This document shows positions 10,821 to 58,150 of a DNA stretch of 64,000 nucleotides, piece after piece. Under the pieces are notes generated by a model. The model saw only the letters and a list, made by a program, of their open reading frames with translations. It had not been told where the DNA came from and searched no databases. The stretch is taken from the NCBI GenBank assembly GCA_963693055.1, contig OY843751.1, positions 4,256,001 through 4,320,000 on the forward strand. The letters run 5' to 3'. The translations under genes and the position numbers were made by a program. Every line of letters starts with the position of its first letter. The stretch's first letter is position 1. This DNA is from a bacterium. GTDB lineage: Bacteria > Zhuqueibacterota > Zhuqueibacteria > Residuimicrobiales > Krinioviventaceae.

Positions 10821-11151
10821 TCCGTCCGAAACTCCTCAGACTGTGTGAAAATGAATTAAATTTCAAACAAATAAAATTATATTTATGAGCAAAATTTAAA
10901 AAAGACGTGGAGTGCATTACCTTTATGTAATGCGGGCCGTCGGAGACGGCCTCCATTCAACTATATTTGCATAATAATATTAAACTTACATCACAATAAT
11001 AAATCTATAATATTTGAAAAGCAGGCGGGTTTAAATCGGACCTTCGGTCCGACGCATAACGCCGGTAGGCGGTCACACGCATAAAGGCGATGCAGTCCAA
11101 AAACATAACAATTTTTCTTGTTTTTACACAACCTGTCCTGTTTCGGACGGA
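10821..11151. repeat. REP-like target hairpin TCCGTCCGAAAC-TCCT-GTTTCGGACGGA split by MITE copy 1
   Basis: 10821-10832 and 11140-11151 are perfect reverse complements; the loop TCCT appears on both sides of the insert (10833-10836, 11136-11139). Confidence 0.85.
10837..11135 (+). mobile_element. Non-autonomous IS1182-related MITE, copy 1 (299 bp)
   Basis: Left end CAGACTGTGTGAAAATGA is identical to the IS left end at 13030. Right end TTTTTACACAACCTG is an imperfect inverted repeat. 4-bp duplication TCCT. No credible ORF. Homologous to 57863-58135. Confidence 0.85.
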
Positions 11152-11188
11152 AATGACTCACAAAACTCTGTTTTGTTTTTCACCAGAT

Positions 11189-11212
11189 CACCGGGTGCAT
11201 TTGCGCCCGGTG
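11189..11212. repeat. GC-rich palindrome CACCGGGTGCA-TT-TGCGCCCGGTG (REP-like)
   Basis: 11-bp arms with one G-T wobble, intergenic. Confidence 0.55.
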
Positions 11213-11248
11213 GAACATCACTCAGTACTTGAGACCTGGGAAAATCAC

Positions 11249-11365
11249 TGTCTGAAATATGATTTTTAGGATTCATCAGATGAAAGAATTACAACCATTA
11301 CTCCTTAAATCCCCCTCCCTCATCCTATTAATCCTTTCATCCTACCCATCCTAATTCAGACAAAA
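11249..11365. repeat. Inverted pair of ATCCT/TTCAGACA-type low-complexity repeats
   Basis: TGTCTGAA..TAGGATT (11249 onward) faces AATCCT..CATCCTAATTCAGACAAAA. A direct copy of the right half lies at about 12972-13009. Confidence 0.55.
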
Positions 11366-11498
11366 AAAATTACATATTTCTATTGCTTTATATTACATTT
11401 TTCCATTTATTCATAATGATGGGGGTAGTACAGGATGGGTGTAAGTTTTTCAATAAATAAATTCATTACTAATTGAAAAAAAATAAAAATTAAATTGT

Positions 11499-12245
11499 AT
11501 GAATACAACATTTTTAAATCATTGTAAAGAAGCATATTACTTTGAATTAGAGCGAAAAGATAGAATAAATTCCAATGTCAATATTCATATAACAATAATC
11601 ACTATCGTTATTGGTGCAATTGCTTTCTTTTTAAATAATTTACCTGATCCCCAAATAAATATCATCTTAATTATGATTTTTTATTTATCCTTATTATTGT
11701 CATCAGTTTTTACATTAATAGTATTTTATATCATTTTTAAAACAATTACTGGATACAAGTATGAATTTATTGCATCAACAGAAACATTTGAAAATTACAT
11801 AAATGATGTAAATGCTTATAATAAACAAGTATCAAAAAATGAAAAAATTGACATAAACACCAAATTCGAAAATTTACTATTCAAACAATTTTGCAAATGT
11901 GCAACACGTAATCAAATTAATAATGATAAAAAATCAGGTTATTTGAATTCTTTATCACGAAAACTTAGTATAACAGTAATACTGATTTTTTTTACATCAA
12001 TACCATTTTTTATATTAAATTTTACTCCTGAAAATAAAATTCAAAATATAAGAATAATTAACTTCGAGGATTCTGAAATGTTAGATAAAAAAGATGAAAC
12101 ACCAATAAATAAAAATACTAATGATTCAGATAAAACAAACAATCAAAAACCTGAACCGCCCAAAGAACCAACAACAAGGACTGTATTAGAATCTGAGCAT
12201 GGGCAAGACAAAGATAGTAACAACCTTTCGAGTACTGAAAAATAA
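11499..12245 (+). CDS. Hypothetical membrane protein, about 3 TM helices, very AT-rich
   Basis: 248-aa ORF with hydrophobic segments near residues 28-46, 53-80 and 155-172 and a polar disordered tail; GC much lower than the flanks. Confidence 0.7.
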   Translation: MNTTFLNHCKEAYYFELERKDRINSNVNIHITIITIVIGAIAFFLNNLPDPQINIILIMIFYLSLLLSSVFTLIVFYIIFKTITGYKYEFIASTETFENYINDVNAYNKQVSKNEKIDINTKFENLLFKQFCKCATRNQINNDKKSGYLNSLSRKLSITVILIFFTSIPFFILNFTPENKIQNIRIINFEDSEMLDKKDETPINKNTNDSDKTNNQKPEPPKEPTTRTVLESEHGQDKDSNNLSSTEK

Positions 12246-12373
12246 TTCCCCCTAATTTCAAAATTCATCTTATTAGGAACGAATTATTTGCATAATTTGC
12301 TCCTCGTCAAATCATTGCTGGCTTGTAGTCCGCATAACATAATAAAACATATCCAACCAATAAAGGAACCCCA

Positions 12374-12862
12374 ATGCCCAATATAACCGAATACAAAAAA
12401 CAGATGCAAAAAGGCGACGTGCCCAAAGCGTATCGCACGATCATGCAATACATCATGGACCTGCGCACGCATTTTCAGAAAGCACACCCCGACTTTACCG
12501 TCTCCGGCAGCATCTATTTCGGATACATGGACATGTCTTACTTTGCAGTCATAACGGATTTGTTGAAAAGCCACAAGCTGAAAATCGCCATTGTGTTCAT
12601 CCACGAGACCGTCAGCTTTGAGGTGTGGCTCGCCGCCGCAAACAAACAGGTACAGAAAAAATACTGGCAATACGCCAAACAACACGAGTGGGACAAATAC
12701 CGCATCCCCCAGTCCATCCAGGGCGAGGACTCTATCCTCGAGCACACCCTTACCTCCACCCCGGATTTCGACAAACCCGATTCCCTCACCCACCAAATCG
12801 AAACAGACACTCTGGCATTTATCAAAGATATCGAAGCGTATCTGGCAGATATTTCAAATTGA
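12374..12862 (+). CDS. Hypothetical protein (DUF7000-like)
   Basis: AAGGAA RBS before the ATG; YKKQMQKG..KAY..IMQYIMDLR..F, SIYFGYMDMSYF, FEVWLAAANK pattern recalled as DUF7000. Confidence 0.7.
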   Translation: MPNITEYKKQMQKGDVPKAYRTIMQYIMDLRTHFQKAHPDFTVSGSIYFGYMDMSYFAVITDLLKSHKLKIAIVFIHETVSFEVWLAAANKQVQKKYWQYAKQHEWDKYRIPQSIQGEDSILEHTLTSTPDFDKPDSLTHQIETDTLAFIKDIEAYLADISN

Positions 12863-12898
12863 TCAAATTTTATCATTATTTTTATTTCTACTCATACC

Positions 12899-12924
12899 GC
12901 ACAGGCGGACCTGCGTGTCCGCCC
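12899..12924 (+). repeat. REP-like palindrome, family A
   Basis: GCAC-AGGCGGAC-CTGCGT-GTCCGCCC. Confidence 0.75.
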
Positions 12925-13029
12925 CAATTATATTTCACTGTGTATCCATCCAATTATCTGTCCCTACAAAGCCCCCTCCCTAATCCTACTCATCCTAATT
13001 CAGACAAAAGCCTCTCATTCCCAGGCAGA

Positions 13030-14629
13030 CAGACTGTGTGAAAATGATCTTGAATATATGATATTAAAGTTGGATATTCAAGTTGAAAGGAGAATCCAAC
13101 TATGCGATATGTTCAAGGTCATAATCGAGAGCAGGAGACGATGTTTCCATCGGTAATGGATGACTATGTAACCGAAGATAATCCGGTAAGGTTTCTTGAC
13201 GCTTATGTTGATACTCTTGACTTACTTAAACTCGGATTTACCCATGCAGATCCCCAGGCAGTAGGCAGAAAACCTTACAATCCGGCAGATCTTTTAAAAT
13301 TATACATTTATGGTTATCTCAATCGTGTTCGGTCCAGTCGTATGCTTGAAAAAGAGACAATCAAAAATTTAGAAGTAATATGGTTGCTTCGTGGATTACG
13401 ACCAGACTTTAAAACTATTGCAGATTTTCGAAAGGACAATAAAGGAGCACTTAAAAAAGTACATCGGGAATTTGTCCTTTATTGTCGTGAACTCAATTTG
13501 TTTGCCCTGGAATTGATTGCCATAGACGGCAGTAAATTCGCTGCAGTCAATCACACCAGAAAAGTTTTTAGTAAAACGAAAATAAAAAAAATGATCAATG
13601 AAATAGATCAAAGTATAAATGATTATCTTGAAAATATTGAACAAAATGATAAACATGAAAAGAGTGCCTCCCATCCGTCGGAAAATAAAGTAAAAAAAAA
13701 GATTGAACACCTAAAGACACAAAAAAGCACCCTGCAAGGCTATGAAGCTGAATTAGAGGCAACAGGCGAAACACAGATTGCCCTGACTGATCCTGACTGC
13801 CGTATCATGCGCACGGGACATAAGGGGCAGGATGCGTGTTACAATATTCAAAGTGCAGTTGACGGTAAATACAAGTTGGTCGTTGACTTTGATATTACAA
13901 ACGAAGGGAATGACCTGCATCAACTTGATAATATGACAAACAGGGTGAAAGAGTTATTTCAAATTGAAGGATTCAACGCTGTTGCTGATTTAGGATACTA
14001 TGAGAGAGATGAAATAAAAAAATGCCATGATAATAAAATCGAATGTTTTCTACCGGAAGGTAATAAATCACAGAACAGCGCAAAAGGGCTGTATACCAAT
14101 AAAAGTTTTCAATATAATGCTAAAGACGATTGCTATATTTGCCCCGCAAAACAACAATTGAATTGGACATACTTCAGAAATCATAACGGCAAAAAAGAAA
14201 AGGTATATTGGACTGCGGCTTGTCGAAAATGTAAACTCAAATCAAAATGCACTACAGCCAAAGATGTGCGTCATATTTATCGATGGGAACATGAAGGAAT
14301 CATAGATGAAATGCGCCAACGGGTCAAAGAAAATCCAGAAATCATTGCCGCTAGGCGGAATATAGTGGAACATCCATACGGGACCATAAAATATGCAATG
14401 GGACATTACTATTTTCTTTGTAAAGGGCTTGAAATGGTTAAAACGGAAATGAGTTTATCATTTCTGGCTTACAACATGAAAAGAGTAATGAATATTATTG
14501 GTGTGAAACAATTAATAAGCATTATTAAAATGTATAAAATGAAAACTCGTGATTTTAAATGTTATTTTCCATTTTGTCCCATTAAAGTCTATAAAATAGC
14601 TGTTCTATAGTTTGTTTTCACACAGTCTG
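13030..14629 (+). mobile_element. IS1182-family insertion sequence, complete (1600 bp)
   Basis: Perfect 15-bp terminal inverted repeats CAGACTGTGTGAAAA / TTTTCACACAGTCTG. 3-bp duplication AGA (13027-13029, 14630-14632). Flanked by hairpin arms TCTCATTCCCAGGC (13013-13026) and GCCCGGGAACGAGA (14633-14646). Confidence 0.95.
13102..14610 (+). CDS. IS1182-family DDE transposase
   Basis: GRKPYNPADLLKLYIYGY..SSRMLE, PDFKTIADFRK, AIDGSKF, TDPDCR, VADLGYY, Cys-rich insertion, VEHPYGTIK; RBS AAAGGAGA. Confidence 0.97.
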   Translation: MRYVQGHNREQETMFPSVMDDYVTEDNPVRFLDAYVDTLDLLKLGFTHADPQAVGRKPYNPADLLKLYIYGYLNRVRSSRMLEKETIKNLEVIWLLRGLRPDFKTIADFRKDNKGALKKVHREFVLYCRELNLFALELIAIDGSKFAAVNHTRKVFSKTKIKKMINEIDQSINDYLENIEQNDKHEKSASHPSENKVKKKIEHLKTQKSTLQGYEAELEATGETQIALTDPDCRIMRTGHKGQDACYNIQSAVDGKYKLVVDFDITNEGNDLHQLDNMTNRVKELFQIEGFNAVADLGYYERDEIKKCHDNKIECFLPEGNKSQNSAKGLYTNKSFQYNAKDDCYICPAKQQLNWTYFRNHNGKKEKVYWTAACRKCKLKSKCTTAKDVRHIYRWEHEGIIDEMRQRVKENPEIIAARRNIVEHPYGTIKYAMGHYYFLCKGLEMVKTEMSLSFLAYNMKRVMNIIGVKQLISIIKMYKMKTRDFKCYFPFCPIKVYKIAVL

Positions 14630-14662
14630 AGAGCCCGGGAACGAGAAACAGGATATTTCCAT

Positions 14663-14688
14663 GTACGGGCGAATCTGTGTGTCCGCCC
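14663..14688 (+). repeat. REP-like palindrome, family A
   Basis: GTAC-GGGCGAAT-CTGTGT-GTCCGCCC, preceded by TTCCAT as is the copy at 10785. Confidence 0.75.
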
Positions 14689-14908
14689 TCCCTCATTTCA
14701 CCAATCCTTAAATCCTGTACATCCGGGTTCATCCCCAAGAAAATCACTTGATTCCTACCCGCAAAATGCTAATTTATAACCGTGCTGTGAACGGTTTCAT
14801 GGCATATTCCTTGCAAAATTATCCACATTCGGTATTTAAGTCTTGATGTTGTAAATAATGAACCAGAATTAAAACGCTAACAGACTGATTAAAAAGAAAT
14901 TATACCCA

Positions 14909-17251
14909 ATGCGCAACATGAACCGTCACCACCTGTTTTCTGTCATTTTCCTGTTTTTTCTCCTGATGGGGAGCAATTTACCCGCTCAGGACGGGCAAAC
15001 CCGCGCCTTGTGGATAACCCGCTGGGACTATCAATCACCCGACGATATCAAACAGATTATGCGCAATGCCAGCGCCTATCATTTCAATACCATCCTGTTT
15101 CAGGTACGAGGCACCGGTACGGTAGCCTATCCCTCAAACCTTGAGCCCTGGTCCGCCGAGTTTAACCATACCGATCCCGGTTGGGACCCCCTTCAGCTTG
15201 CGCTTGAACTGGCACACGGTTATAACATGGAGCTGCACGCCTGGATCAACGTTTATCCCGGTTGGGGTGGCAAACAAGCACCAAACGATCCCAATCAACT
15301 TTACAACAGCCACAAAGACTGGTTCATGACCGATCAGGCCGGTAATCCCCAGGCGCTGAACAGCCACTATGTATGGCTCTCCCCCACGCATCCGCTGGTA
15401 CAAAAACATATTCTCAATCTATGCAGGGAGCTCTATTCCCGCTACAACATTGACGGCATTCATCTCGACTATTTCAGATACCCCGGTCCCGGATTTTCTT
15501 ATGATCCGGCATCCATTAAAATATTCCAGTTCAAAACCGGTCACACCCCGGATGAGGTCCCCTATACCTGGAACAAATGGCGGCGCAATAACATCAGTCT
15601 GCTGTTGGCAAAACTGCACAGGGCGCTCAAAGAACACAATCCTGAAATGATTCTTAGCGCTTCGGTTGTGGGTAATTACAGTCGCGGATACAACATGTTT
15701 TTTCAGGACAGCCACGGTTGGCTCGCCAACAATATCGTCGATGCGGTTTACCCCATGGTCTACACATCCGATTCTTTACTCTTTCGCAACTGGACCACCC
15801 AGCATCTGTTCAATACACACGATCGACATATATACCCCGGTATTCTAATCAATTCTCCCGATCAGATGGCAGACCAGATACGTATTTCCAACACGCTCAA
15901 TACAAAGGGGCTCGCACTGTTCTCGTACGGCAAGCTGTTTCCTTCGCATTTCCCGGATCCGGTTTACACCCAAAAGCTGGAAGCAGCCTTTGGCCCCTCT
16001 ACCCGTCCCGCTTCCCTGCCATGGAAAGCCTATGCCGGAGATTCGCAAGGTCCTGTTATCTCAGAGATCAAAACCATACCCGCATCTCTCGATGATCACA
16101 CAAAGTTTAAAATTGCCGCATACATTACAGATCCATCCGGTGTTTATGACGACAAAACCGGTCCCGAAGGCCAGGGCATTTACCTGATCTTTGACCGGCA
16201 GTGGCCGCCCAAAGACGGACAACAGTATAAAATGAGCCGGGTCAAAAAATCTGACAACTGGTACATAACAGACAAGTCCATACCCCCGCAAAGTATAGGG
16301 CTCGATTTCCGCTGCAGAATTTTCGCATGGGATGACTATCACGAATCAGCCAATCACCCCAAACGCAATTTGGGATACAGCGATATCTGGTCTTTTTCAA
16401 TCCTGAAAACTGACGATCATTATATATCCAAAGGTAAATGGGGACCGTCACTATGGCGGCCAACCTCGCTCGCTATCGATTCTCAGCAAAACATCTGGAT
16501 AGGCGGCATCAGTGAGAATCCTGTCACAGTATTGAAGCAGAACGGTGAACCCACGTTATTCTCGCCCATCACGGAAGCGCTGAACGAATATGGCAATCCC
16601 TTGCAAATCCAGTCTGTCTCCTGCCTGGCTTATTCCGGCAATGGATATATTTACGCGCTGGATTCTGATAATCCCGGTCTCATACTACGCTTTTTCACCC
16701 GAAACGGTATTGCAGATACAGCTTGGGTAACCAATTATCCCGCAAGCGCTCTCGATTGTGATGATTATGGTAATATTTATCTACTCGAAAGTCGTACTGC
16801 CAAATGGCATGTGCTGAACAAGCAGGGTGTTGAATTAAAAAACAGTCCTTTTGGTGAGGGACATTTCGGGCATGACATTGCAGTGCTAAGAGATGGCTCT
16901 GCGGTCTTTATAAACGATCTGTCTACAAATTCAGTACAACAATGGAACGGTGCCATAGAAGGCGAATACGCGCGTTTTTGGCAAAGTGATGACCTGCCGG
17001 CAGTAGATCTGGATGTGGGTAGAATTACATCAAAATCAAACTTTGTTTATGTCTCGCACAGCCAAAGGGGAATTATCACCATCTATAGTAGAGCGGGCTA
17101 TCCTGTAACGCATTTGACCGGCGGAACACCGCCATTATATGCGCCAATGGATATAGCAATATCCAAAGACGGATCAACGCTATATGTTTTGGAAGCTCCG
17201 GGTAACGGACCGTCTCAATTGATAAAATGGAATAAACAGGCAGGTAATTAA
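14909..17251 (+). CDS. Secreted glycosyl hydrolase-like 10 (GHL10/DUF187) protein with a C-terminal NHL-like beta-propeller
   Basis: Signal peptide, RALWITRW, FNTILFQVRG, WDPL..ELHAWINV, DGIHLDYFRYP, PMVY; C-terminal PTSLAID and PMDIAIS repeats. Confidence 0.85.
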   Translation: MRNMNRHHLFSVIFLFFLLMGSNLPAQDGQTRALWITRWDYQSPDDIKQIMRNASAYHFNTILFQVRGTGTVAYPSNLEPWSAEFNHTDPGWDPLQLALELAHGYNMELHAWINVYPGWGGKQAPNDPNQLYNSHKDWFMTDQAGNPQALNSHYVWLSPTHPLVQKHILNLCRELYSRYNIDGIHLDYFRYPGPGFSYDPASIKIFQFKTGHTPDEVPYTWNKWRRNNISLLLAKLHRALKEHNPEMILSASVVGNYSRGYNMFFQDSHGWLANNIVDAVYPMVYTSDSLLFRNWTTQHLFNTHDRHIYPGILINSPDQMADQIRISNTLNTKGLALFSYGKLFPSHFPDPVYTQKLEAAFGPSTRPASLPWKAYAGDSQGPVISEIKTIPASLDDHTKFKIAAYITDPSGVYDDKTGPEGQGIYLIFDRQWPPKDGQQYKMSRVKKSDNWYITDKSIPPQSIGLDFRCRIFAWDDYHESANHPKRNLGYSDIWSFSILKTDDHYISKGKWGPSLWRPTSLAIDSQQNIWIGGISENPVTVLKQNGEPTLFSPITEALNEYGNPLQIQSVSCLAYSGNGYIYALDSDNPGLILRFFTRNGIADTAWVTNYPASALDCDDYGNIYLLESRTAKWHVLNKQGVELKNSPFGEGHFGHDIAVLRDGSAVFINDLSTNSVQQWNGAIEGEYARFWQSDDLPAVDLDVGRITSKSNFVYVSHSQRGIITIYSRAGYPVTHLTGGTPPLYAPMDIAISKDGSTLYVLEAPGNGPSQLIKWNKQAGN

Positions 17252-18108
17252 CGGGTCATCAACATGGCGCAAGGCAAATTCTGCAAAGCCAGCTCCAGTT
17301 GTTGAGGAAATAATCGGTCCCACAAATTCAAACGACTACGGGGACCATGCACAATAAACAAGTCCGCCATAATTTCACGAGTCAGATCTAGCGTTGTTGA
17401 ACGGCTCTTTTCGTTCAAACACCGGGTCTGAAAGCTAATACCCTCTGTATCAAACTCGGCAATAAAAGATTTCAGCTTGTCATCTTCTTTTTTATAAATA
17501 TCTTTGATCTTTTTAGCGTCATTGCTTAGTGTCTTTTTATCAGCAAGATCAGGTATACGAAACGTATGCGTAAAAAACAGATCTCGTGTCCCCAATTCTT
17601 GCGCTATATTAATAGCGACCTGAACAGCCAGTCTGGCTTCATCATCATACTCTACCGCACAATGGATACGTTGCAGAGGCATTGGTTTGATCTGGGGTTC
17701 CGTCATTAACAATACAGAACAAGGCGCATGTCGTGCAATGCTTCTAGCCACAGAACCAAGATAATACTTTAAAAATCCTTCTTTTTTCAAGGCTCCGGCA
17801 ACTATTAAATCTGCATCATATTCTTTGGCCACATCAATCAAAACATCGGCAGGATTACCATTCCGAACAAAGCAGATTGGCGGGTGTTTTTTAAAATTAG
17901 ACTGGTCTATAGCCTCTTCCAGCTTTATACGTTGCGAAGCCGTTTCGTCACCTGCATGCACAATGATTGGCCAGGTGCCCATCATTTTTAACAATCGATG
18001 AGATTCATTCAACACCGCAGTCAATCTTGGGGAGAATGCGGCAGCAACAACAGCCCGTTTAAAAACAGGTTCTCCTAAAGAATCATTCATATCAAACGGC
18101 TCTAACAC
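17248..18108 (-). CDS. Universal stress protein (tandem USP domains)
   Basis: GNPADVLIDVAKEYDADLIVAG, LGSVARSIARHAPCSVL, second domain ending LPCAML. Confidence 0.88.
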   Translation of the reverse strand: MLEPFDMNDSLGEPVFKRAVVAAAFSPRLTAVLNESHRLLKMMGTWPIIVHAGDETASQRIKLEEAIDQSNFKKHPPICFVRNGNPADVLIDVAKEYDADLIVAGALKKEGFLKYYLGSVARSIARHAPCSVLLMTEPQIKPMPLQRIHCAVEYDDEARLAVQVAINIAQELGTRDLFFTHTFRIPDLADKKTLSNDAKKIKDIYKKEDDKLKSFIAEFDTEGISFQTRCLNEKSRSTTLDLTREIMADLFIVHGPRSRLNLWDRLFPQQLELALQNLPCAMLMTR

Positions 18109-18503
18109 CCTGGTTCTCCTGGATTAAAATAAAACAATAACTTAGCCAATCACGCTTCAAAAATCAAGCACTAAATTCAAGATAAATAAAATATATCAAA
18201 AAGATTTATAATTTTTCAGCGTCTATATAATCAAGAAATTTCAAAACAATTCAACATCGTTTGTATGATTTTGGTCTAATTGTTGCCAAAACAGTGTTAG
18301 AAAATCAATATAAAAATATTATAGTTCTTTCATAAACAATAAAGCAATAAAAACAATAACTTAGAAACCCTACAAGTGTGGTATCCCTTAAGCTGTTACC
18401 TTTATGGGACAAATAAAGACCAAAATTGATTTTCATGCCACATTTTTGTATTTGTAGCAAATATGCTGTTATGCATAAAATTATTCCGGGAAGGTATTTT
18501 GGT

Positions 18504-21500: not shown

Positions 21501-21563
21501 AAACCTATTGACATATCTGAACTGACTAACGCATTATTTAAATGTAAAATATCTGTCAATTGA
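18504..21563 (+). CDS. Cytoplasmic multi-PAS hybrid sensor histidine kinase with two receiver domains
   Basis: PAS repeats, [42 protein letters not shown], two REC domains ([22 protein letters not shown]). Start uncertain; the ORF is open from 18426. Confidence 0.95.
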
Positions 21564-21594
21564 AAGATTATTTAATAATTAATAGAGGACTAAA

Positions 21595-21981
21595 ATGCAA
21601 GCAGATCATGTTTTGAACGTTGAAGAGTTATATGAACGTGTAGCAGGTGACGAAGAACTGCTCCAGGAAATCATAGAATTATTCATGGAAGACTATCAAG
21701 AGCATTTGGATAACATCAACACTGCAATAGCAACCAATGATGCAGAAGCGCTGACCAAAGCGGCACATACTTTAAAAGGTGCAGTGGCTACTTTTGCTGC
21801 AGCCAAAGCCAAAGATGCTGCGTTTGTTCTTGAAAAAATGGGTAGAAACAATGATCTCACCGGGGGCTTGGAAGCATATCAAACACTGGTGATCGAGGTT
21901 CAGCATTTAAAAGAAGCTTTATCTCAATTTACAATTCCGGAAGAAATAGAAAAAACACTAGACCACGAAGCAATTTTTTAA
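21595..21981 (+). CDS. Hpt phosphotransfer protein
   Basis: AAHTLKGA motif; GAGGA RBS; directly follows the hybrid kinase. Confidence 0.93.
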   Translation: MQADHVLNVEELYERVAGDEELLQEIIELFMEDYQEHLDNINTAIATNDAEALTKAAHTLKGAVATFAAAKAKDAAFVLEKMGRNNDLTGGLEAYQTLVIEVQHLKEALSQFTIPEEIEKTLDHEAIF

Positions 21982-21987
21982 ATAAAA

Positions 21988-22016
21988 AAAGGCACCGGCT
22001 TAACACTGGTGCCTTT
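21988..22016. terminator. Probable bidirectional intrinsic terminator
   Basis: AAAGGCACCGG-N7-CTGGTGCCTTT with A/T tracts, between the convergent hpt and ROK genes. Confidence 0.8.
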
Positions 22017-22024
22017 ATAAAACT

Positions 22025-23128: not shown

Positions 23129-23235
23129 TTGTATAGCACTCCTTTACCTTTGCTTGGTGGTTATAAAAAGCCGGAGAAATTCCCGGTCAAAATTTTCAAC
23201 AATAGCATTTACAAAGATATTTATTCTGAAAAAGT

Positions 23236-28282: not shown

Positions 28283-28305
28283 CTTTTATATATTATATAC
28301 AATTA

Positions 28306-44802: not shown

Positions 44803-44824
44803 AAAATAAAAATTTTTAACGATT

Positions 44825-45103: not shown

Positions 45104-45157
45104 GTATCATCACCTCCGCCTCCCGGAAAGCACACCTCCCAAAGAAGCCATATACAG

Positions 45158-47390: not shown

Positions 47391-47433
47391 ATCCCATTTT
47401 AGTTACAATTAACAATTCAAATATTGATCTTGC

Positions 47434-50002: not shown

Positions 50003-50003
50003 C

Positions 50004-51401
50004 TTAATCCATCTCCAAAGCTTCATACGGGTTTACACAGGAAACGACAGACTTGACCTTGCCTCGTCCACCGCGGGGTATTTCATTCACATATTCAATT
50101 TCAATATTCATCGATTCACCGACGCGTTCTTCAACCTTTTGCCGCAGGTATTCATCATCTATTATTTCATATTGCTCATCCGGAATGATTCTCAGAACAA
50201 GCTCTTGCCGGTTGGGTTGATAGATTTGCGCCTGTAAAATGGAATCAATGCCTTTAAATACATGGTCCATTCTTCCTACAAGCCTTCCTTCCGGCGTTAC
50301 AATATAATCATCAATACGCCCTCCTATCGCAGACACTTGTGGATATTTTCTTCCGCACGGACAGGCTTCACTTTTATCAACTGTTACTACATCTCCGGTC
50401 CTATATCGAAACAACGGCATGGCCTTATTATTGAGACCGCTTGCAATGAGTTCGTATAAATTAGATGCCTGGTCTTTAATAGGTAACAGTTCAACAATCC
50501 CATACTCGGGAATTATATGATACCTGCCATGCTCACAGGTATGGATAGCCGCTACCCGCTCGGCGTGACCATAATAATCAAATATCTTACACTCGAATAT
50601 CTTTTCTATAGTATGCCGCTGCTCAGGTGTCAAAGTCTCAGATGAGGTTAACACCGCTTTTAACGGGAACACCATACCTAAATTCTCTAGCATCCTTGCC
50701 AACACATAAATAGATGAAGGGTATCCATCCAACGCAACCGGCTTGTATCGTTTGAGTGCATCAATATAATGACCGGTATGGTTTATAGACAAATGATACG
50801 AAGACATGATCAGCCTGTTATCGGCTTTACTCAATAACCAGCATTTTCGATTATTGGCAATTGCCGATGGTAAAATATCTCCCTTGAGAATTCCTATACG
50901 TTCCCGGGGATGTATACCGGCCCATTGGTACTGACGCATAATAACCGCATGCTCAAAACCAATATTTGAAAGGTTTCGGTACAACGTTAAGGGAGTACCA
51001 GAGGTACCGCTTGTATAACACTTGTACAATAAAAACTTTTTATAATGTCTGGACACAAACCGTGCCGGTGCTTGCTGAACATATTCCTTTTCAACAACCG
51101 GAAGCTGGTACATATCATCGGTCGTCCAAATCTCATCGATCGAGTCTTTATTTTGTTTAAAAAAATCTTTATAAAAAGGTACATACTGAAATGCACTGTG
51201 TAAATATCTTTTAAATTTTTTATTCTGGTATTCGGTCAACTCGTCCAAAGACCACCATTGCGATTTTTCCAAAAATGCTGAATATCGGCGATATGGCGCA
51301 AGTCTGCGTTTCACCCAGACATGGCGCAATGCATTGATCTGTAATCCGATATTTTGTTTTTTTCCAAACATTCCTGTCAACCTGTTACGCGTCCCATGCA
51401 T
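50004..51401 (-). CDS. Phenylacetate-CoA ligase-family (CapK-like) adenylating enzyme
   Basis: TSGTSGTP P-loop, GYPSS, SSETL, YGHAE, MPLFRYRTGD, GRIDD. Confidence 0.88.
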   Translation of the reverse strand: MHGTRNRLTGMFGKKQNIGLQINALRHVWVKRRLAPYRRYSAFLEKSQWWSLDELTEYQNKKFKRYLHSAFQYVPFYKDFFKQNKDSIDEIWTTDDMYQLPVVEKEYVQQAPARFVSRHYKKFLLYKCYTSGTSGTPLTLYRNLSNIGFEHAVIMRQYQWAGIHPRERIGILKGDILPSAIANNRKCWLLSKADNRLIMSSYHLSINHTGHYIDALKRYKPVALDGYPSSIYVLARMLENLGMVFPLKAVLTSSETLTPEQRHTIEKIFECKIFDYYGHAERVAAIHTCEHGRYHIIPEYGIVELLPIKDQASNLYELIASGLNNKAMPLFRYRTGDVVTVDKSEACPCGRKYPQVSAIGGRIDDYIVTPEGRLVGRMDHVFKGIDSILQAQIYQPNRQELVLRIIPDEQYEIIDDEYLRQKVEERVGESMNIEIEYVNEIPRGGRGKVKSVVSCVNPYEALEMD

Positions 51402-51665
51402 GCCACAATTTACATCATCCTGCTAAAACTCAATTACAATATTGAGGCACACAGTAAACACTTTTTGAAACCATAACTGCCGCATTTTACGGCAGTTAAA
51501 AATTTAAGCCAAATAAAAACAAATACTTATAATAAAACCATTATTTCTATTCAACATGCAATCATACTTGCTTTTTCAAAAGTTATGCCAAAAACAAAAT
51601 AGGAAATAATGCAAAATACGTCAATAACTATATTACTTTTAGCAAAAATATAAAAATTATATATC

Positions 51666-51694
51666 TTGACATTCTGAATTAGCATGGTTAATTT
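51666..51694 (+). promoter_or_regulatory. Possible sigma-70 promoter for the GT2-alr unit
   Basis: TTGACA-N17-TAATTT, 22 nt upstream of the ATG at 51717. Confidence 0.35.
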
Positions 51695-51716
51695 TATTCC
51701 AAAAACAACAAAAGGT

Positions 51717-52373
51717 ATGAATAGCATTCCCCAAATATCCATAATTATGCCGGTATATAACCGAAAAAGTCTGATCAACAGGGCCATTGATTCAATCATG
51801 GAACAGACCCTGACAGATTGGGAACTGCTCATTATAGATGACGGAAGTACTGATGGTTTGGAATCTCTTGTTTTTCCTCTTGTTGAAAAACACCGCAATA
51901 TTCGCTACAGCAGGCACAGCAATCGTGGTGTGGCGCTGACCCGCAATCTCGGCATATTGGCAGCACAGGGAGAGTTTATTACATTTCTGGATTCAGACGA
52001 TGAATTCAAACCCGATCACCTACAGTTGCGTTATAATTACATGAAACAACATCCCGAAACAGACCTCCTGCACGGAGGTGTGGAACTGGTTGGCCCGCCT
52101 GATACACATTATGTTCAGGACGCCTTTGATCCCAACAAAAAAATTCATCTCAGTGAATGTTATATCGGCGCGACAATTTTCGGGAAAAAAGCGGTCATGC
52201 AGCACGAAGGTGGCTTCAAAGCACTGCCCTACTCTTCCGAATCTGAATTTATACCCAGAATTATGAAACATTTTACAGTTAATAAAGTTAATTATCCTAC
52301 ATACATCTATTATACAGGACTTGAAGACAGTATCTGCACCAGGAAGCAAAAAGGAAAAAACAACAGGTCATGA
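51717..52373 (+). CDS. Glycosyltransferase family 2
   Basis: ISIIMPVYN, IIDDGSTD, RNLGI, FLDSDD. The ORF is open from 51684. Confidence 0.9.
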   Translation: MNSIPQISIIMPVYNRKSLINRAIDSIMEQTLTDWELLIIDDGSTDGLESLVFPLVEKHRNIRYSRHSNRGVALTRNLGILAAQGEFITFLDSDDEFKPDHLQLRYNYMKQHPETDLLHGGVELVGPPDTHYVQDAFDPNKKIHLSECYIGATIFGKKAVMQHEGGFKALPYSSESEFIPRIMKHFTVNKVNYPTYIYYTGLEDSICTRKQKGKNNRS

Positions 52374-53560
52374 ACAAACAAAGCCAATCCTTGTTTGACG
52401 AAAACATACTTCGCCCGGCTTGGATCGAGATCGATCTGGATGCCATAAAACACAATTATCAACAGATCCGAAACCATCTGCAAACCCAAATACTCGCTGT
52501 AGTCAAAGCCGATGCCTACGGCCTGGGTGCGGTCCAAATCTCCAGAACCCTGGAAAGCGCCGGTGTAGATCGTCTGGGCGTTGTAATGCTGGACGAAGCA
52601 GTAGAGTTACGAAATGCAGGCATACAAACACCCATCGTAAATATGGGTTCATTTCTTGCGTCTTTGGCTCCCCTTGTTGTAAAACACGATATTGAACAAG
52701 TTGTTTACAAAGTGGATGATGCCCTGGCACTTTCAAATGCCGCAGTTAAAGCAAACAAAACTTTGCCCATTCATTTCAAAATTGATACCGGCATGTCCCG
52801 GTATGGAGTTCATTTTTCTCAGGCTGTAGACACCTTATTAAAAATCTCCTCTTTTCCCAATCTCGAGATCAGGGGAATCATGACCCATTTTCCCGTTTCA
52901 GATGCAATAGACAAAAGCTTTGCTCTGCTGCAGATTGAACGCATAAAACATATTAAAAAGCAACTGGATGCTCGCAATATCAACATTCCTATCTGGCACA
53001 TGGCAAACAGCGGCGCCACGCTGGATATACCCGCATCTCACTTGAACATGGTGCGAGTTGGGCTCATGTTCTATGGTTATTACCCCTCTGAAGATGTTGT
53101 CAGGCCCTATGATCTTAAACCCGCCATGAGCTTGAAAGCAAAAATTGTCAATGTCAAAAACATTTCCCGTGGAGATACGGTTGGCTATGGCCGCAGATTT
53201 CTGGCAGAAAAAGAAGAGCGCATAGGTATTTTACCTATGGGCTATTCCGACGGTTATGATCGCAAAATTGGTCGTAACGGTGGTGAGGTGCTGATACATG
53301 GCAAGCGCGTGCCCATAATCAGCGGATTGTGCATGGATGCGTTTTTCATCAAGCTTACCGATTTCCCCGAGGTCCATGAAGGAGATACGGTCGTGGTCAT
53401 GGGATTTGATAAAGATAAAGAAATTTCTCCCCATGAAATTGCAACAAAAACCGGTTCGGTCTCGTATGAGGTCATATCAAATTTTAATAAAAGATTGCCA
53501 AGGGTTTATTTGCAAAATGGTGAAATAACCGAAATCAAAAATTACCTGATCAATCATTAA
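52370..53560 (+). CDS. alr: Alanine racemase
   Basis: AVVKADAYG PLP-lysine motif, KIDTGMSR, VGYG, GYSDG, CMD, SYEV. Confidence 0.96.
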   Translation: MNKQSQSLFDENILRPAWIEIDLDAIKHNYQQIRNHLQTQILAVVKADAYGLGAVQISRTLESAGVDRLGVVMLDEAVELRNAGIQTPIVNMGSFLASLAPLVVKHDIEQVVYKVDDALALSNAAVKANKTLPIHFKIDTGMSRYGVHFSQAVDTLLKISSFPNLEIRGIMTHFPVSDAIDKSFALLQIERIKHIKKQLDARNINIPIWHMANSGATLDIPASHLNMVRVGLMFYGYYPSEDVVRPYDLKPAMSLKAKIVNVKNISRGDTVGYGRRFLAEKEERIGILPMGYSDGYDRKIGRNGGEVLIHGKRVPIISGLCMDAFFIKLTDFPEVHEGDTVVVMGFDKDKEISPHEIATKTGSVSYEVISNFNKRLPRVYLQNGEITEIKNYLINH

Positions 53561-53578
53561 TTTTTTGAATATATCGGA

Positions 53579-56467
53579 GTGTATATGAATATTAACAAAC
53601 CGGCTTTACTGGTCCTGCTGCTCTCTGTCTGTTCGTGGGCCGGAAACGGGTTCTACTCTTATTATAATGGACGCAACCATCCTGAATTAAAATGGCAGGT
53701 TATCGAAACCGAACACGCCAAAATCATGTACCATCAGGGTCTGGAAGATGAGGCTAAACAAGCGGCAAAAGCCGCCGAGGTTTGCTATGGCCCCATTACC
53801 CAAAATCTGGATCATGAACCGCCCAACAAAATCCCCATTTTTATCTCAGATCAGGATGATATCACAAATGGCTTTTCAGTAGCCAACAAGTTTATTGCCA
53901 TTTGGGTCAATGTGAATGATTATACCGACTGGACTACCGGAAGCGACAAATGGATACGTATGGTAATTGGGCACGAAATGGTTCACTATATTCATTTTTC
54001 AGCAATCAATACCTGGATGGGGCTGGTAGGCTTTGGATTTAGCGGAACACCGAGTTGGTTTCTGGAAGGAATGGCCCAATACGAGTCCGAGACCTGGAAC
54101 GTTCATCGCGGAGATCTATTGCTGCGTACCGCTGTTATAGAGGATGAAATGGATTTCAACTCGGGCAAATGGATCACCAACGGTCGACTCATGTATGCCG
54201 AAGGGAATTCCATTGTGCGCTATATTGCAGACCAGTATGGTGACAGTACCCTGGTGAAAATCCTGAATGAACGCCAAAAGACCCTGTGGATTCCCCGTTA
54301 TAGTTTTACGGCTTCGTTCAAAAAAGCGCTGGATCTTGACTCTTTTGATGAATTTTATCGTGAATGGCGCCGCCATGTTAATATTTATTACAACACCTAT
54401 TATGGCCAAAAAGAAGATATCAACGACTATGCAAAATCTCTTGATCTGCCCCTGGTATACATTAAAGGCCTGCAAATATCACCCAATGAAGAATGGCTGG
54501 CAGTATCTGGCATTACTGACCTCAATGAACCGTTAAATAAACTCTGTATTGTAAAAAATGATTCTACAAAAGAAACGCACATATTGGTACAGAGCAATGC
54601 CGGCAATCATTTTTCTTTTTCACCTGACGGATCACACATCGCATACTCCCGTATCCGTCGCGGCGAGCATGGATCATTACAGAACGACCTGTTTATAACC
54701 GATCTGGATGGTAACAGCAAGCGTATAACTAAAGACGCCGGTGCTGAACAACCGGATTGGTCTCCCGATGGTGCAAAACTGGTTTGCATCAAAGAAGATA
54801 AAGGCACCACAAACTTGTATACCCTGGCGCCAGATGGCTCCAATTTCCAACAACTCACACATTTTTCAGGGGATGTACAACTCCAAACCCCGCGCTGGTC
54901 ACCTGATGGCAAATCCATTATCGCTACTATCTTTGACGAAAGCGGAAAACGAGACATTGCCCTGATAGATGCGGAAACCGGCAGTATGATAAAGCTCACC
55001 CACGATGAAGATGACGACCGATCGCCGGTCTGGTCCCCGGACGGAAACAATGTCGCATTTACCAGTTATCGCGGCGGTACGCCCGATGTTTATACCGTAC
55101 CTGTAAATGCAACTGCTTCTGAAAGTATAGGCATTCGTCAGGTTACGGATGTTCCCGGTGGTCTTTACAGCGTCGATTGGGTTCAGGACAGTCTGGTAAC
55201 CATTCTGAATGATTCCCGTCGTAAAACCGTTGTTATGAAACTGTCTCCCGACCGTGAACCGGAATCCATGCCGCTGAACATCAATCCACGCTACACGTCG
55301 TGGATGACGCACAGACCACCGCATGATATTCCCCCACTGGATATAAAAGACCAAGATGACCCGGTTATTCTGAAACAGTATAAATACAGTCCCTTAAAAA
55401 ATATTCAGCATTATATGACCATCCCGTTCCCGGCAACCCTCAACAACTCGTGGGGCTTTTATTTCATGACCTATTGGTCTGAACCGCTGGTAAAACACAA
55501 TTTTACCGGGTTTGGTTTTTTTGATGTGGAACAACCGCAAGACAGTCGTCTTTTTGTTTCATATATTAACAAGACCTTTTACCCCACAATCCATACAACA
55601 CTGCTGCGTATGCCGTCTACCGGCCAGATCATTGATGACAAACTGCTGGTTGAAGAAACAGTTGGAGGCGTAATAGACATTGAATTCCCTCTTGATTTTG
55701 GAGGCAATCTCTATTCGAACCATACTTTTTCTGTTAACGGCCAATGGCTAAAAAATGATCCCTATGATGTTGAGGAATTCAAAAATTCAGTGATTCCGGT
55801 TGAAAAAAACACAATTGGTGAATTTGGTTTTGCTTACACCTGGAAAAAGCAGCGACCCAACTATAACAATATCATCCATCCCTCTCAGGGTATGGGATTT
55901 CAAGTACAGGCCTCATTCGCGGATAAAAAATGGAACAGTGACCTGACTTATAAACACGCCCTGGCAGACGGTTATGTCAACATTCCCTTTCCCGATGAAA
56001 GCAGTATTCTCTATATACGCGCCAAAGGTGAAGCGGCAGATGGCAGATTGCCGTCTCAACACTTTATCGGATTCGACAAGTATGATCAACCCGATTTTGG
56101 TATGGGACTCAAATTCTCCGAGCGCGAACGGCTGCGTGGTATTAAACAATACCTGTTTGGTGATCGTTTGTGGATGGCCACTGTAGAATACCGCATGGAT
56201 TTGGTTCCGGATCTGGGCTGGCAGGCAGCAGGAGTAAGACTGGGACGCGTAACCCTGGCAGGGTTTGCGGATTTTGGTTCTACCTGGCTTAACGGAGAAA
56301 CCTCATTGAGTGACGCGGACATTCACAAAACCTACGGCATTGAATTTAAAAATGCAGTAAATTTTGGTGGGTTCGTTTTCGCACATGAATACGGCTGGGC
56401 TTGGCTCTGGGATGAGGACAAAGATGCGGAAGCATACTATCGGATCCGCGCGGTTGTACCGTTCTAA
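53579..56467 (+). CDS. Outer-membrane protein: HExxH metallopeptidase-like domain, PD40/TolB propeller and Omp85-like barrel
   Basis: Signal peptide, HEMVH..PSWFLEGMAQY, repeated WSPDG, LRG loop motif and EYR in the C-terminal strands, terminal Phe. Confidence 0.8.
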   Translation: MYMNINKPALLVLLLSVCSWAGNGFYSYYNGRNHPELKWQVIETEHAKIMYHQGLEDEAKQAAKAAEVCYGPITQNLDHEPPNKIPIFISDQDDITNGFSVANKFIAIWVNVNDYTDWTTGSDKWIRMVIGHEMVHYIHFSAINTWMGLVGFGFSGTPSWFLEGMAQYESETWNVHRGDLLLRTAVIEDEMDFNSGKWITNGRLMYAEGNSIVRYIADQYGDSTLVKILNERQKTLWIPRYSFTASFKKALDLDSFDEFYREWRRHVNIYYNTYYGQKEDINDYAKSLDLPLVYIKGLQISPNEEWLAVSGITDLNEPLNKLCIVKNDSTKETHILVQSNAGNHFSFSPDGSHIAYSRIRRGEHGSLQNDLFITDLDGNSKRITKDAGAEQPDWSPDGAKLVCIKEDKGTTNLYTLAPDGSNFQQLTHFSGDVQLQTPRWSPDGKSIIATIFDESGKRDIALIDAETGSMIKLTHDEDDDRSPVWSPDGNNVAFTSYRGGTPDVYTVPVNATASESIGIRQVTDVPGGLYSVDWVQDSLVTILNDSRRKTVVMKLSPDREPESMPLNINPRYTSWMTHRPPHDIPPLDIKDQDDPVILKQYKYSPLKNIQHYMTIPFPATLNNSWGFYFMTYWSEPLVKHNFTGFGFFDVEQPQDSRLFVSYINKTFYPTIHTTLLRMPSTGQIIDDKLLVEETVGGVIDIEFPLDFGGNLYSNHTFSVNGQWLKNDPYDVEEFKNSVIPVEKNTIGEFGFAYTWKKQRPNYNNIIHPSQGMGFQVQASFADKKWNSDLTYKHALADGYVNIPFPDESSILYIRAKGEAADGRLPSQHFIGFDKYDQPDFGMGLKFSERERLRGIKQYLFGDRLWMATVEYRMDLVPDLGWQAAGVRLGRVTLAGFADFGSTWLNGETSLSDADIHKTYGIEFKNAVNFGGFVFAHEYGWAWLWDEDKDAEAYYRIRAVVPF

Positions 56468-56630
56468 AAAATAGAAAAACACGGACCCCGAGTATCCACC
56501 ATAAATGGATGTATAAAAGGGCGGTGTCCTGAGCTTATAGATAGACATTCAAATATACTTTTCCACTAAAATTTTAGTGGTATATAAAAACTTTACCTAG
56601 TGAATGATTATAAAAATAAAGGAACACACC

Positions 56631-57722
56631 ATGTCAACCATAAAACGAGTAGGCGTTCTCACCGGCGGTGGTGACTGTCCCGGACTTAATGCGGTCATCC
56701 GTGCGGTAACCAAAGCATTGATAACCAAATATGGTATAGAAGTCATTGGTATTGAAGATGGATTCGAAGGTCTGGTACACAATCGTATGCGCAATCTCAC
56801 ATATGATGCGGTATCCGGCATACTTCAAAGCGGTGGCACAATCCTGGGTACATCAAACAAGGCCAATCCCTTTAGCTATCCTGTGGAAGAAAATGGCAAC
56901 TCTGTGCTCAAAGACCTGAGCGACCAATCCATTGAAAACGCTAAAGCAGCCGGTATGGATGCCCTGGTCTGCATTGGCGGTGACGGTACTATGACAATTG
57001 CAAGCCAGTTGATAGAGAAAGGGCTGCCGCTGATTGGTGTTCCCAAAACCATTGATAACGATCTGTATGGTACTGATGTTACCTTTGGATATGATACAGC
57101 CGTATCCATTGCCGCGGAAGCAATTGACCGCATCCATACAACCGCCCAGTCCCATCACCGTGTGATGCTGGTAGAGATCATGGGCCGCTATGCAGGATGG
57201 CTCACCCTTGGCGCGGGTATTGCCGGCGGCGCAGATGTAATCATCATCCCCGAGATTGAATACAATCTCGATGCAATATGCGATGTTGTAGTCAAACGCA
57301 GCAAAAAAGGCCGCCGGTTCAGCATTATAGCAGTGGCAGAAGGTGCAAAACCGCAAGGCGGCGAACTGACTGTCAGCCGTGTGGTTAAGGACAGTCCCGA
57401 AGCTCTCAGACTTGGCGGTATTTCCGTCAAGCTGGGCAACGATATTGAAGATCAAACCGGACTCGTAACCCGTGCAACCATTCTGGGCCATTTACAGCGT
57501 GGCGGTACACCCACCGCATATGACCGTATTCTTTCTTCAAGATACGGCGTAGGTGCCGCGGACCTCATCGGCTCAGGCAACCTGAACCGCATGGTAGCCC
57601 TGCAAGGCAACGAGATCACCTCTGTGCCCATTACAGATATTGGCGGCAAAACCCGCAAAGTAACAATGGATGATGAATTGATAGAGGTCGCTAAAAAAGT
57701 CGGCACCAATATGGGGATCTAG
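56631..57722 (+). CDS. pfkA: 6-phosphofructokinase (PfkA family)
   Basis: TGGGDCPGLNA, GGTILGT, IGGDGT, PKTIDND, EIMGR, LGHLQRGG. Confidence 0.96.
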   Translation: MSTIKRVGVLTGGGDCPGLNAVIRAVTKALITKYGIEVIGIEDGFEGLVHNRMRNLTYDAVSGILQSGGTILGTSNKANPFSYPVEENGNSVLKDLSDQSIENAKAAGMDALVCIGGDGTMTIASQLIEKGLPLIGVPKTIDNDLYGTDVTFGYDTAVSIAAEAIDRIHTTAQSHHRVMLVEIMGRYAGWLTLGAGIAGGADVIIIPEIEYNLDAICDVVVKRSKKGRRFSIIAVAEGAKPQGGELTVSRVVKDSPEALRLGGISVKLGNDIEDQTGLVTRATILGHLQRGGTPTAYDRILSSRYGVGAADLIGSGNLNRMVALQGNEITSVPITDIGGKTRKVTMDDELIEVAKKVGTNMGI

Positions 57723-57784
57723 ACCCGGATCCTGAGTTTCAACCACATGTGGAGTATCAAAATACGTTTCCATAATCTTTATAT

Positions 57785-57813
57785 GTAGGGAACGGTCTGA
57801 GACCATTCCCTAC
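57785..57813. repeat. REP-like palindrome GTAGGGAACGGTC-TGA-GACCATTCCCTAC
   Basis: GTAG/CTAC-ended near-perfect palindrome in intergenic DNA. Confidence 0.75.
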
Positions 57814-57847
57814 ACGGATTATACATCGTGCATCCGCCAATTATACT

Positions 57848-58150
57848 GCGTCCCAAACTCCGTAGACTGTGAAAATGGATCATTTAAAACATATTAATCT
57901 TGTTGAGCTTGAGAAAAGTCAGAATGGTGTGGAGTGCATTACCTTTATATAATGCGGGTCGTCGTAGACGGCCTCTACTCAACTATATTTGCATAAAAAT
58001 ATTAAACTTACATCACAACAATAAATTTATAATATTTGAAAAGTAGACGGGTTTAAATCGGACCTTCGGCCCGACGCATCGCATAAACGCGATGCACTCC
58101 AAAAACAAAATTATTTCTAGTTTTCTCACAACCTGTCCGGTTTGGGACGC
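57848..58150. repeat. REP-like target hairpin GCGTCCCAAAC-TCCG-GTTTGGGACGC split by MITE copy 2
   Basis: Arms 57848-57858 and 58140-58150 are perfect reverse complements; loop TCCG duplicated (57859-57862, 58136-58139). Downstream AATGATTACGCGAAACTCTGTTTC resembles AATGACTCACAAAACTCTGTTTT after site 1. Confidence 0.85.
57863..58135 (+). mobile_element. Non-autonomous IS1182-related MITE, copy 2 (273 bp)
   Basis: Ends TAGACTGTGAAAATGG and TTTTCTCACAACCTG; 4-bp duplication TCCG; interior from GTGGAGTGCATTAC onward aligns with copy 1 apart from scattered substitutions and a 20-nt indel. Confidence 0.85.

Follow-up and report, generated by a model that had tools for sequence, protein, structure and literature searches.

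What leads an insertion sequence and two MITEs to the exact center of short palindromes, and why does the duplication at each junction resemble the palindrome's loop? The window, the whole 64,000-nucleotide stretch of bacterial DNA analyzed here, holds three such insertions. A first-pass annotation had placed them in the loops of REP-like hairpins, and its coordinates, ends, and duplications for all three elements proved correct.

The insertion sequence, the MITEs, and their junctions

The insertion sequence is 1600 bp long (13030..14629; this and the other window features of this section are on the plus strand unless stated) and is flanked on either side by AGA. Its terminal inverted repeats (left, 13030..13044; right, 14615..14629, minus strand) match at 15 of 15 positions. 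The left REP arm (13013-13026) is followed by one copy of the AGA loop (3 nt, 13027-13029), and the second copy (14630-14632) leads into the right arm (14633-14646); the congeneric genome G001 has the empty site. MITE 1 (10837..11135, 299 bp) has IS1182-type ends, lacks a long ORF, and carries TCCT on either flank, with the left arm at 10821-10832 and its loop copy at 10833-10836, and the other loop copy at 11136-11139 followed by the right arm at 11140-11151. Beside this site lies the target REP unit's partner hairpin, which is degenerate and has a 3-nt loop (11161..11175). MITE 2 (57863..58135, 273 bp) is flanked by TCCG (57859-57862, after the left arm at 57848-57858, and 58136-58139, ahead of the right arm at 58140-58150). 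Its left end is decayed and, aligned without gaps, agrees with the right end at 9 of 15 positions; an intact REP occupies the corresponding place in G001. In all three cases the insertion separates the C and G that close a palindrome. One refinement concerns the pairing: 2 of the 14 pairs of the IS target are mismatched, as they are in the empty G001 site.

The IS encodes a 502-aa DDE transposase (13102..14610), recognized by NF033551, Pfam, alignment, and predicted fold. Its NF033551 score of 387.4 bits, against a family cut-off of 270, bears out the IS1182 identity, and its Pfam domains are DUF772 and DDE_Tnp_1_6. In an alignment of 103 transposase sequences D142 and E423 are invariant and D230 is present in at least 90%; these three residues likely form the catalytic triad. 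A cysteine cluster (C347/C374/C377/C383) is also conserved and lies in an insertion at about residues 313-395; a helical insertion occupies about residues 158-221. The predicted model (pLDDT 94.5) has an RNase H-type fold, and its best fold matches are piggyBac and Tn5 (E 2e-5 to 3e-4); a sequence search against solved structures gave chance matches alone (best E 0.016).

Further copies of the IS are present in the genome (G000), one identical (6443100-6444699) and one 91% identical (1976057-1977656). The identity of the first to the window copy indicates recent insertion. The two identical copies differ in their flanking arms and loops, and one has a 3 bp duplication and the other a 4 bp duplication. 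Such copies and the empty orthologous sites point, though indirectly, to active transposition. Contigs of the sequencing runs X1-X3, probably from the source sample, span the junctions and yielded no circle or excision joint, although contigs cannot show absence. A joint at 10810-12904 with a 21-base side in these contigs was discarded because it coincides with a dispersed repeat.

The target REP family and the length of the duplication

The target REP is a short multi-copy extragenic palindrome with about 30 empty and 13 filled copies. All 13 complete elements in the genome fall in this one palindromic family, exactly at the center, and none lies in a non-palindromic site. As the first-pass annotation had proposed, landing is intergenic: 12 of the 13 filled sites lie outside every ORF of at least 100 aa. 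Genes are spared because the REPs are intergenic, a placement that may be of benefit. The family makes up ∼7% of the hairpins predicted to be equally stable, which gives a chance probability of ∼7e-16 for 13 of 13, a value that is partly circular because the arms behind the family matrix were chosen after the filled sites were seen. Of the 417 empty hairpins whose stability equals or exceeds that of the median target, 395 are outside the family and none of these has an insertion. Sequence therefore matters, and recognition of hairpin structure by itself is excluded. The partner hairpin of the REP unit, which has a similar 3-nt loop (∼25 motif matches), accounts for none of the 13 insertions.

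Across 34 sites the half-site consensus is approximately T-C-C-N-A-R-R-Y, with information peaks of 1.1-1.6 bits at positions -8, -7, -6, -4, and -1. The variable positions of the arms covary (position -2, for example, is paired in 32 of 34 sites vs 14.8 expected). Such covariation is expected of any RAYT substrate, yet it also fits a reading of structure, and in natural sites pairing goes hand in hand with sequence.

In relatives, the target REP lies beside a RAYT at 3 of 29 RAYT loci from the same taxonomic order (G012 L205; G025 L208, on both sides; G040 L212, where the contig starts in the gene). These copies, together with the empty orthologous sites described below, support a REP family as the target. 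The RAYT beside G000 6443100 was rejected as its cognate since it has its own flanking REPs. Classical REPs are described in the text of PMC2817692 as having a GT(A/G)G head ahead of the palindrome; this head is absent from filled and empty target sites alike. The target is not a classical GTAG-type REP and belongs to another RAYT group. Rfam gave no match in 10500-15000 of the window.

To relate duplication to loop, we curated 35 events by hand from 10 genomes. Twelve pair a 3-nt loop with a 3-bp duplication, 21 pair a 4-nt loop with a 4-bp duplication, and 2 combine a 4-nt loop with a 3-bp duplication (Fisher p 1e-7). The duplication length is thus not fixed and tracks the loop in 33 of 35 events, as had been claimed, while the two exceptions make "always the whole loop" slightly too strong. 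At the 13 G000 sites the duplication equals the loop exactly in 8 and with one mismatch in 3; in one the left junction is rewritten (1976057), and one fails, its 4-nt loop having given a 3-bp duplication (4670409).

Recognition of the palindrome center

We consider it somewhat probable that a transposase dimer reads duplex half-sites at the REP center and that the spacer between them is duplicated. The dimer would read ordinary duplex DNA in which each REP arm serves as a half-site, and each transposon end would be joined directly after its half-site. If standard DDE chemistry applies, strand attack at the arm/spacer boundary would make the stagger equal to the spacer, which gap repair would copy. 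This reading by a dimer is likely the reason that insertion is central and the spacer duplicated, and the use of both orientations (6 one way and 7 the other) is what a symmetric dimer predicts. The duplications of the lineage show a default of 4 with 3 tolerated, which would reflect its stagger. Three further observations were counted in favor. The closest folds, piggyBac and Tn5, act on bent duplex targets. Related transposases have switched targets by subclade and mostly kept 4-bp duplications, and in IS1397 and ISKpn1, discussed below, the transposase sets the target choice. On the other side, the two 3-bp events in 4-nt loops count against half-site reading.

It is also possible, although we would not expect it, that the REP is engaged as an extruded cruciform with some stem sequence read, the ends being joined 5' of the two loops and the loop duplicated, as in pathway c of Wan et al. 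2017 (Fig. 13), which that figure draws as a hypothetical route to loop-only duplication. The product geometry is identical, and 9-11 of 11 positions are paired in all 13 restored targets. Half-site pairs with poor pairing are never filled (0 of 21 strict-core inverted pairs, 20 of which are in ORFs; 65 intergenic pairs with one mismatch, all empty), which favors a cruciform and counts against duplex half-sites, as do the hairpin targets of IS1272, which lack a consensus and are modeled as structure-dependent. The 395 uninserted hairpins exclude structure alone and leave structure plus sequence compatible. The arms, however, are only 11-14 bp long, and the window IS target, a verified empty site with 2 of 14 pairs mismatched, disfavors extrusion. 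The loops would lie at opposite hairpin tips, a geometry that seems hard for one synaptic complex with a 3-4 bp stagger. MITEs of G157 with the same ends make 3-bp off-axis duplications in another repeat family, as judged by eye, and across the wider clade the loop equals the duplication at just 10 of 51 sites. Taken together, the sequence evidence makes duplex half-site reading appear likelier than attack on a cruciform. A broader version strikes us as doubtful: that the IS1182 lineage attacks cruciform REPs at both loops, as the first natural example of pathway c, that each subclade has been re-aimed at a different REP/attC-like repeat, and that the MITEs serve as a second, RAYT-independent vehicle by which REPINs of one family reach the REPs of another.

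Recruitment of a transposase of little specificity of its own by a REP-binding partner, either the cognate RAYT or a host protein, is unlikely. The target is indeed a RAYT-flanking REP at the three loci above, and host proteins are described in PMC3184786 as binding REPs. Yet none of the four RAYT-like regions of G000 (a fifth hit was left out) has the target REP on both flanks, while the identical IS copies are recent, and the transposase phylogeny predicts the target class.

The arms could instead be carried along as part of the element, or a RAYT could move REP and MITE as a unit, which we regard as very improbable. At the MITE 1 place G001 lacks the REP altogether, and 4 of the last 11 bases of the left arm at G000 1976057 are not those of the empty orthologue. 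G001, however, has an empty REP at 5 of the 8 G000 sites tested, so that the arms are target and not cargo, and the IS site of G001 is in turn an empty REP in G000. The comparison gave no decision at 4670409, 5702163 (rearranged), and MITE 1 (REP absent). Together with the different arms and loops around identical IS copies, the empty REPs refute traveling arms for the IS; this reading may yet hold for single MITE sites. Finally, it is scarcely credible that insertion is loosely specific and that REP insertions are the survivors of selection, an explanation that would suit the 12 of 13 sites outside long ORFs but is largely refuted since it does not account for placement to a single base at the axis, the restriction to a single family when there are many intergenic repeats, or a duplication that tracks the spacer.

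Related systems and the REP cargo of the MITEs

With duplex half-site reading, the enzyme would be a naturally site-specific DDE transposase whose stagger varies (3-4 bp) as the target dictates. A profile library supplied 150 homologues. Related transposases sort by subclade onto other repeats, with mostly 4-bp duplications (48 of 52 sites having a duplication). The named IS1182 members ISPa7, ISPmo1, and ISPa22, which are 44-45% identical and belong to the same clade, have nearly the same ends and a subclade with mostly 4-bp duplications; their subclade inserts in another palindromic repeat, centered on GGCC/GACC, whereas the window IS targets the REP family. Because relatives combine almost identical ends with other target repeats, exchanging domains could show where target choice resides in a family without a solved structure. 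Among 301 genomes of the phylum of G167, relatives were found in G167 alone; the junction pattern had 0 matches in viral contigs, and Rfam gave no match at 7 attC-like loci.

IS1397 reportedly inserts in the PU loop with a 3-4 bp duplication. IS1397 and ISKpn1 (IS3) insert specifically in enterobacterial REP/PU elements, and their transposase sets the specificity (cited in PMC1525189, PMC3184786, and PMC2817692); their transposases are unrelated in family to that of the window IS, and these texts describe no MITE with REP cargo for them. Every copy of ISPsy8 (IS3) and ISRm22 (IS4) is reported in REPs at the symmetry axis, with hybrid duplications from recombination between copies (Tobes and Pareja 2006, PMC1525189). 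Unlike the spacer-tracking duplications here, theirs are given in that paper as fixed at 3 or 6 bp, and its two REP-targeting tables list no IS1182 member. In staphylococci, IS1272 and TnSha1 are palindrome-targeting elements of the IS1182 family (PMC4923244, PMC5678879), and the two papers refer to Siguier 2015 for the use of palindromes as targets by some members of the family. As described there, IS1272 deletes the hairpin without duplication or sequence consensus, whereas our element keeps the arms, duplicates the spacer, and uses one REP family; stem-loop replacement of the IS1272 type is not seen. The present system allows duplex and cruciform recognition to be tested directly against each other, a choice that the IS1272 work did not settle. 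MITEPye1 of Paracoccus yeei has IS1182-type 18-bp ends, 4-bp duplications, intergenic positions, stem-loop folding, and presumed trans-mobilization (PMC11578231). The main text of that report names no palindromic or REP target and does not identify the cargo as a REP doublet; the window MITEs have both.

Palindrome-seeking is thus already known in IS1182 and REP-targeting in IS3, IS4, and IS110. The novelty of the IS/MITE/REP trio had been overrated, with palindrome targeting, REP-center insertion, IS1182 MITEs, and the loop-only pathway all in print. Homing of an IS to REP centers is not new as a general behavior, and the window element is an unusually clean variant, not a novel type of element.

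Ten complete MITEs occur in the genome (273-299 bp, 72-99% alike). They are noncoding and dispersed, with IS-like ends and a target duplication, as expected of MITEs; the orthologous site of one (G000 3902186) is empty. As had been claimed, their ends match those of the IS. The likeness stops ∼18 bases in, and the interiors give no BLAST match, so that only the ends are common and an origin by internal deletion of the IS is ruled out. The transposase probably moves them in trans.

The first-pass annotation had missed what lies inside. Judged by sequence, the MITEs are IS ends around a REP doublet of another RAYT. MITE 1 holds an inverted pair of other-family REP units (10908..11099; units 10908-10951 and 11036-11099), and MITE 2 holds the same inverted doublet (57931..58100; units 57931-57973 and 58058-58100). 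For REP biology the result is a three-layer nest, in which the REP doublet of one RAYT, inside IS1182 ends, destroys the REP of another. The cargo REP unit also flanks RAYT genes, at G000 6210872-6211284 and at G002 L213.

Elements at the axis of a REP palindrome

On re-reading, the window proved to hold three elements with the positions, ends and duplications reported in the first-pass annotation: an IS at 13030-14629 inside a hairpin with loop AGA, MITE 1 at 10837-11135 (TCCT duplicated) and MITE 2 at 57863-58135 (TCCG duplicated). The IS is 1600 bp long with perfect inverted repeats of 15 bp, and it is a member of IS1182, as had been proposed; its 502-aa transposase scores 387 bits against an NCBIfam IS1182 cut-off of 270. 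In an alignment of 103 homologues D142 and E423 never vary and D230 almost never does, and the best fold matches of the predicted structure (pLDDT 94.5) are the piggyBac and Tn5 transposases. Residues 347-383 (window 14140-14250), an insertion inside the catalytic domain, contain four conserved cysteines; this insertion probably forms a metal-binding module and is a candidate for the part that reads the target. A 1.64-kb segment at 11366-13009, with two ORFs (a 248-aa membrane-like protein and a DUF7000 protein), is bounded by direct repeats of 27 nt (11339-11365 and 12983-13009) and is missing from the congeneric genome G001.

The genome containing the window (G000; one contig, 6.5 Mb) holds ten complete MITEs of 273-299 bp and three copies of the IS, of which two are identical; eight partial loci (one copy decayed, one split by a further element, and fragments lacking IS ends) are kept outside these counts. 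Each of the 13 complete elements occupies the axis of a palindrome from a single family, six in one orientation and seven in the other. Intergenic landing was borne out, 12 of the 13 filled sites falling outside six-frame ORFs of at least 100 aa, versus 10% of the genome. The family is a REP (short repeated palindrome), as had been claimed, since its members flank RAYT (REP-associated transposase) genes in 3 of 29 RAYT loci drawn from the taxonomic order; they carry no classical GTAG head. Two RAYT genes, each matched as two pieces, lie at G000:C1:6442346-6442799, where the second IS copy is ∼300 bp away, and at G000:C1:6210872-6211284, where the MITE cargo unit follows downstream.

The MITEs resemble the IS over ∼18 terminal bases only. 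Between these ends lie two units, inverted relative to each other, of a repeat other than the target family; that repeat adjoins a RAYT gene in G000 and flanks one in G002, a further genome compared. Other genomes of the phylum contain MITEs of 88-289 bp with the same ends and other hairpin pairs inside (13 among those listed), and the simplest guess is that a MITE arises when two IS ends capture a RAYT locus or REPIN lying between them. An unrelated ∼1.3-kb element, apparently a separate IS, interrupts the MITE at G000:C1:5718820-5720431. The genome G157 has 117 end motifs and ∼59 MITEs (L361-L390), mostly of 118-120 bp, with duplications mostly of 3 bp, off axis and in a different repeat family.

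Loop length, duplication length and empty sites

The duplication had been said to equal the loop. Among the 13 elements of G000 it does so exactly in eight and with one mismatch in three; one has a rewritten left junction (1976057) and one is unequal (4670409; loop 4 nt, duplication 3 bp). Of the identical IS pair, one copy sits in a 3-nt loop with 3 bp duplicated and the other in a 4-nt loop with 4 bp. Insertions somewhat favour 4-nt loops, because the ∼30 palindromes left empty have 3-nt loops in 21 cases versus 4-nt loops in 9 (p 0.02, or 0.054 when the motif is made stricter).

Across the phylum, the junction pattern was matched 60 times, in 20 of 167 genomes, and its reversed control not once. 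The bare end motif is present in 63 of the 167, a tally that includes G158, on which no other result here rests; among the listed junction matches, counted by hand, the spacer is 3 nt in 26, 4 nt in 33 and 5 nt in 1. An automatic filter assigned 36 of 96 sites read with both flanks to the target family. Loop and duplication are equal and exact in 19, differ by one mismatch in 6 and by more in 4, and are unequal in 7, namely two true exceptions, one misregistered site and four that look like hybrids of two sites. We then curated 35 events from 10 genomes by hand, with hybrids removed, orthologues counted once and some low-scoring sites added. Three-nucleotide loops have 3-bp duplications in 12 events and 4-bp in none; 4-nt loops have 4 bp in 21 and 3 bp in 2. 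Fisher p-values (1e-7 for all 35, 2e-5 for exact duplications only, 0.007 for G000 only) are overstated, because related genomes are non-independent. The original observation is real, well controlled and slightly overstated: duplication follows loop length in 33 of 35 events, and two have 3 bp in a 4-nt loop.

Empty palindromes stand at orthologous sites in G001, so the arms are target rather than cargo. Of eight G000 sites tested, five are empty there, two are uninformative and one, MITE 1, lacks the entire REP. The counterpart of the window IS site is empty and has the identical two arm mismatches; those of IS 6443100 (matched via the right flank), IS 1976057 and MITE 3902186 are likewise empty. 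Conversely, the REP holding G001's own IS (protein 79% identical; loop TCT, duplication TCT) is empty in G000. The fifth of the five empty sites, the MITE 2 orthologue (G001:C2:2198340-2198550), is a partial MITE in opposite orientation followed by an intact REP, and a second G001 locus, L024, likewise has half a MITE and then an intact second target copy; such pairs possibly reflect abortive transposition or repair. At G000:C1:1976046-1976056, the left arm of IS 1976057, 4 of 11 junction-side bases differ from the empty orthologue and the farther flank is ∼93% alike, likely through short gene conversion from another copy. The site of MITE 5702163 is replaced in G001 (C3:1849779-1851014) by a 1.2-kb mosaic of tandem repeat modules that derive from several hairpin families.

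Sequence or structure as the cue

The transposase had been suggested to read hairpin arms or a cruciform. Structure alone is excluded, because none of 395 stable non-family hairpins across G000 is hit, a comparison partly circular in that the family matrix was derived after the filled sites were known, and because filled half-sites conserve T at -8, C at -7 and -6, A at -4 and a pyrimidine at -1. (With the 13 elements removed, 417 empty hairpins reach at least the median target stability, and the 395 are among these.) We consider it somewhat probable that the transposase would read the two arms as half-sites in duplex DNA. Attack on a cruciform, which we regard as rather unlikely, would account for the pairing of variable arm positions far above chance and for poorly pairing inverted half-site pairs never being filled (in G000, 0 of 21 under a strict definition, 20 of them within ORFs, and none of 65 intergenic pairs with one mismatch). 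However, one verified target carried arm mismatches, arm length is small, a cruciform would hold its two loops far apart, and the nearest folds, the piggyBac and Tn5 transposases, act on duplex targets; these points favour duplex half-site reading. Natural sites do not discriminate between these models, since selection by RAYT already favours hairpins.

Related systems and the wider clade

The window IS works like ISPsy8 and IS1397, the latter of which reportedly inserts into the PU loop with a duplication of 3-4 bp. It does not work like IS1272, which targets hairpins and deletes them on insertion (PMC4923244; PMC5678879). Both papers cite Siguier 2015 on palindrome targeting within IS1182, and Wan et al. 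(PMC5678879) draw loop-only duplication there as hypothetical pathway c. Tobes and Pareja (PMC1525189) describe REP-targeting members of IS3, IS4, IS5, IS110 and IS256, two such elements entering at the symmetry axis, and MITEPye1 is a MITE of IS1182 type (PMC11578231). A search of openly accessible literature, mainly of titles and abstract openings, returned no description of an IS1182 element that homes to REP loops and makes a spacer-dependent duplication, nor of REP-carrying MITEs.

We also read 75 homologous elements with both flanks (38-50% identity; metagenomes, viral contigs, plasmids and two genomes). Duplications are 4 bp in 48, 3 bp in 1, 6 bp in 2, 2 bp in 1 and absent in 23. Among the 51 with at least 3 bp, 23 have a stem of at least 7/10 pairs (shuffled mean 5.3, maximum 13), and the loop equals the duplication in only 10. 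Flank types sort by subclade in a quick tree of 112 proteins read by eye: GGCC/GACC-centred repeats in the ISPa7/ISPmo1/ISPa22 group and, elsewhere, an ACGT/ACGG-centred repeat, sites that we judge by eye against the attC consensus to be attC-like, and others. The five lineages seen on the target REP family (G000, G001, G099, G054, G067) group within a single clade of 23 rows (support 98), in which other targets are present too. Because relatives home to other repeats and their loop seldom equals the duplication, loop duplication is a local outcome within a broader repeat-homing habit. Seven relatives (L085, L090, L091, L095, L096, L097, L110) lie a few bases off attC-like core sites, five with clear 4-bp duplications. 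At L099, L103, L147 and L156 the reverse-complemented left flank equals the right flank, duplication included, through either inversion between copies or assembly chimeras.
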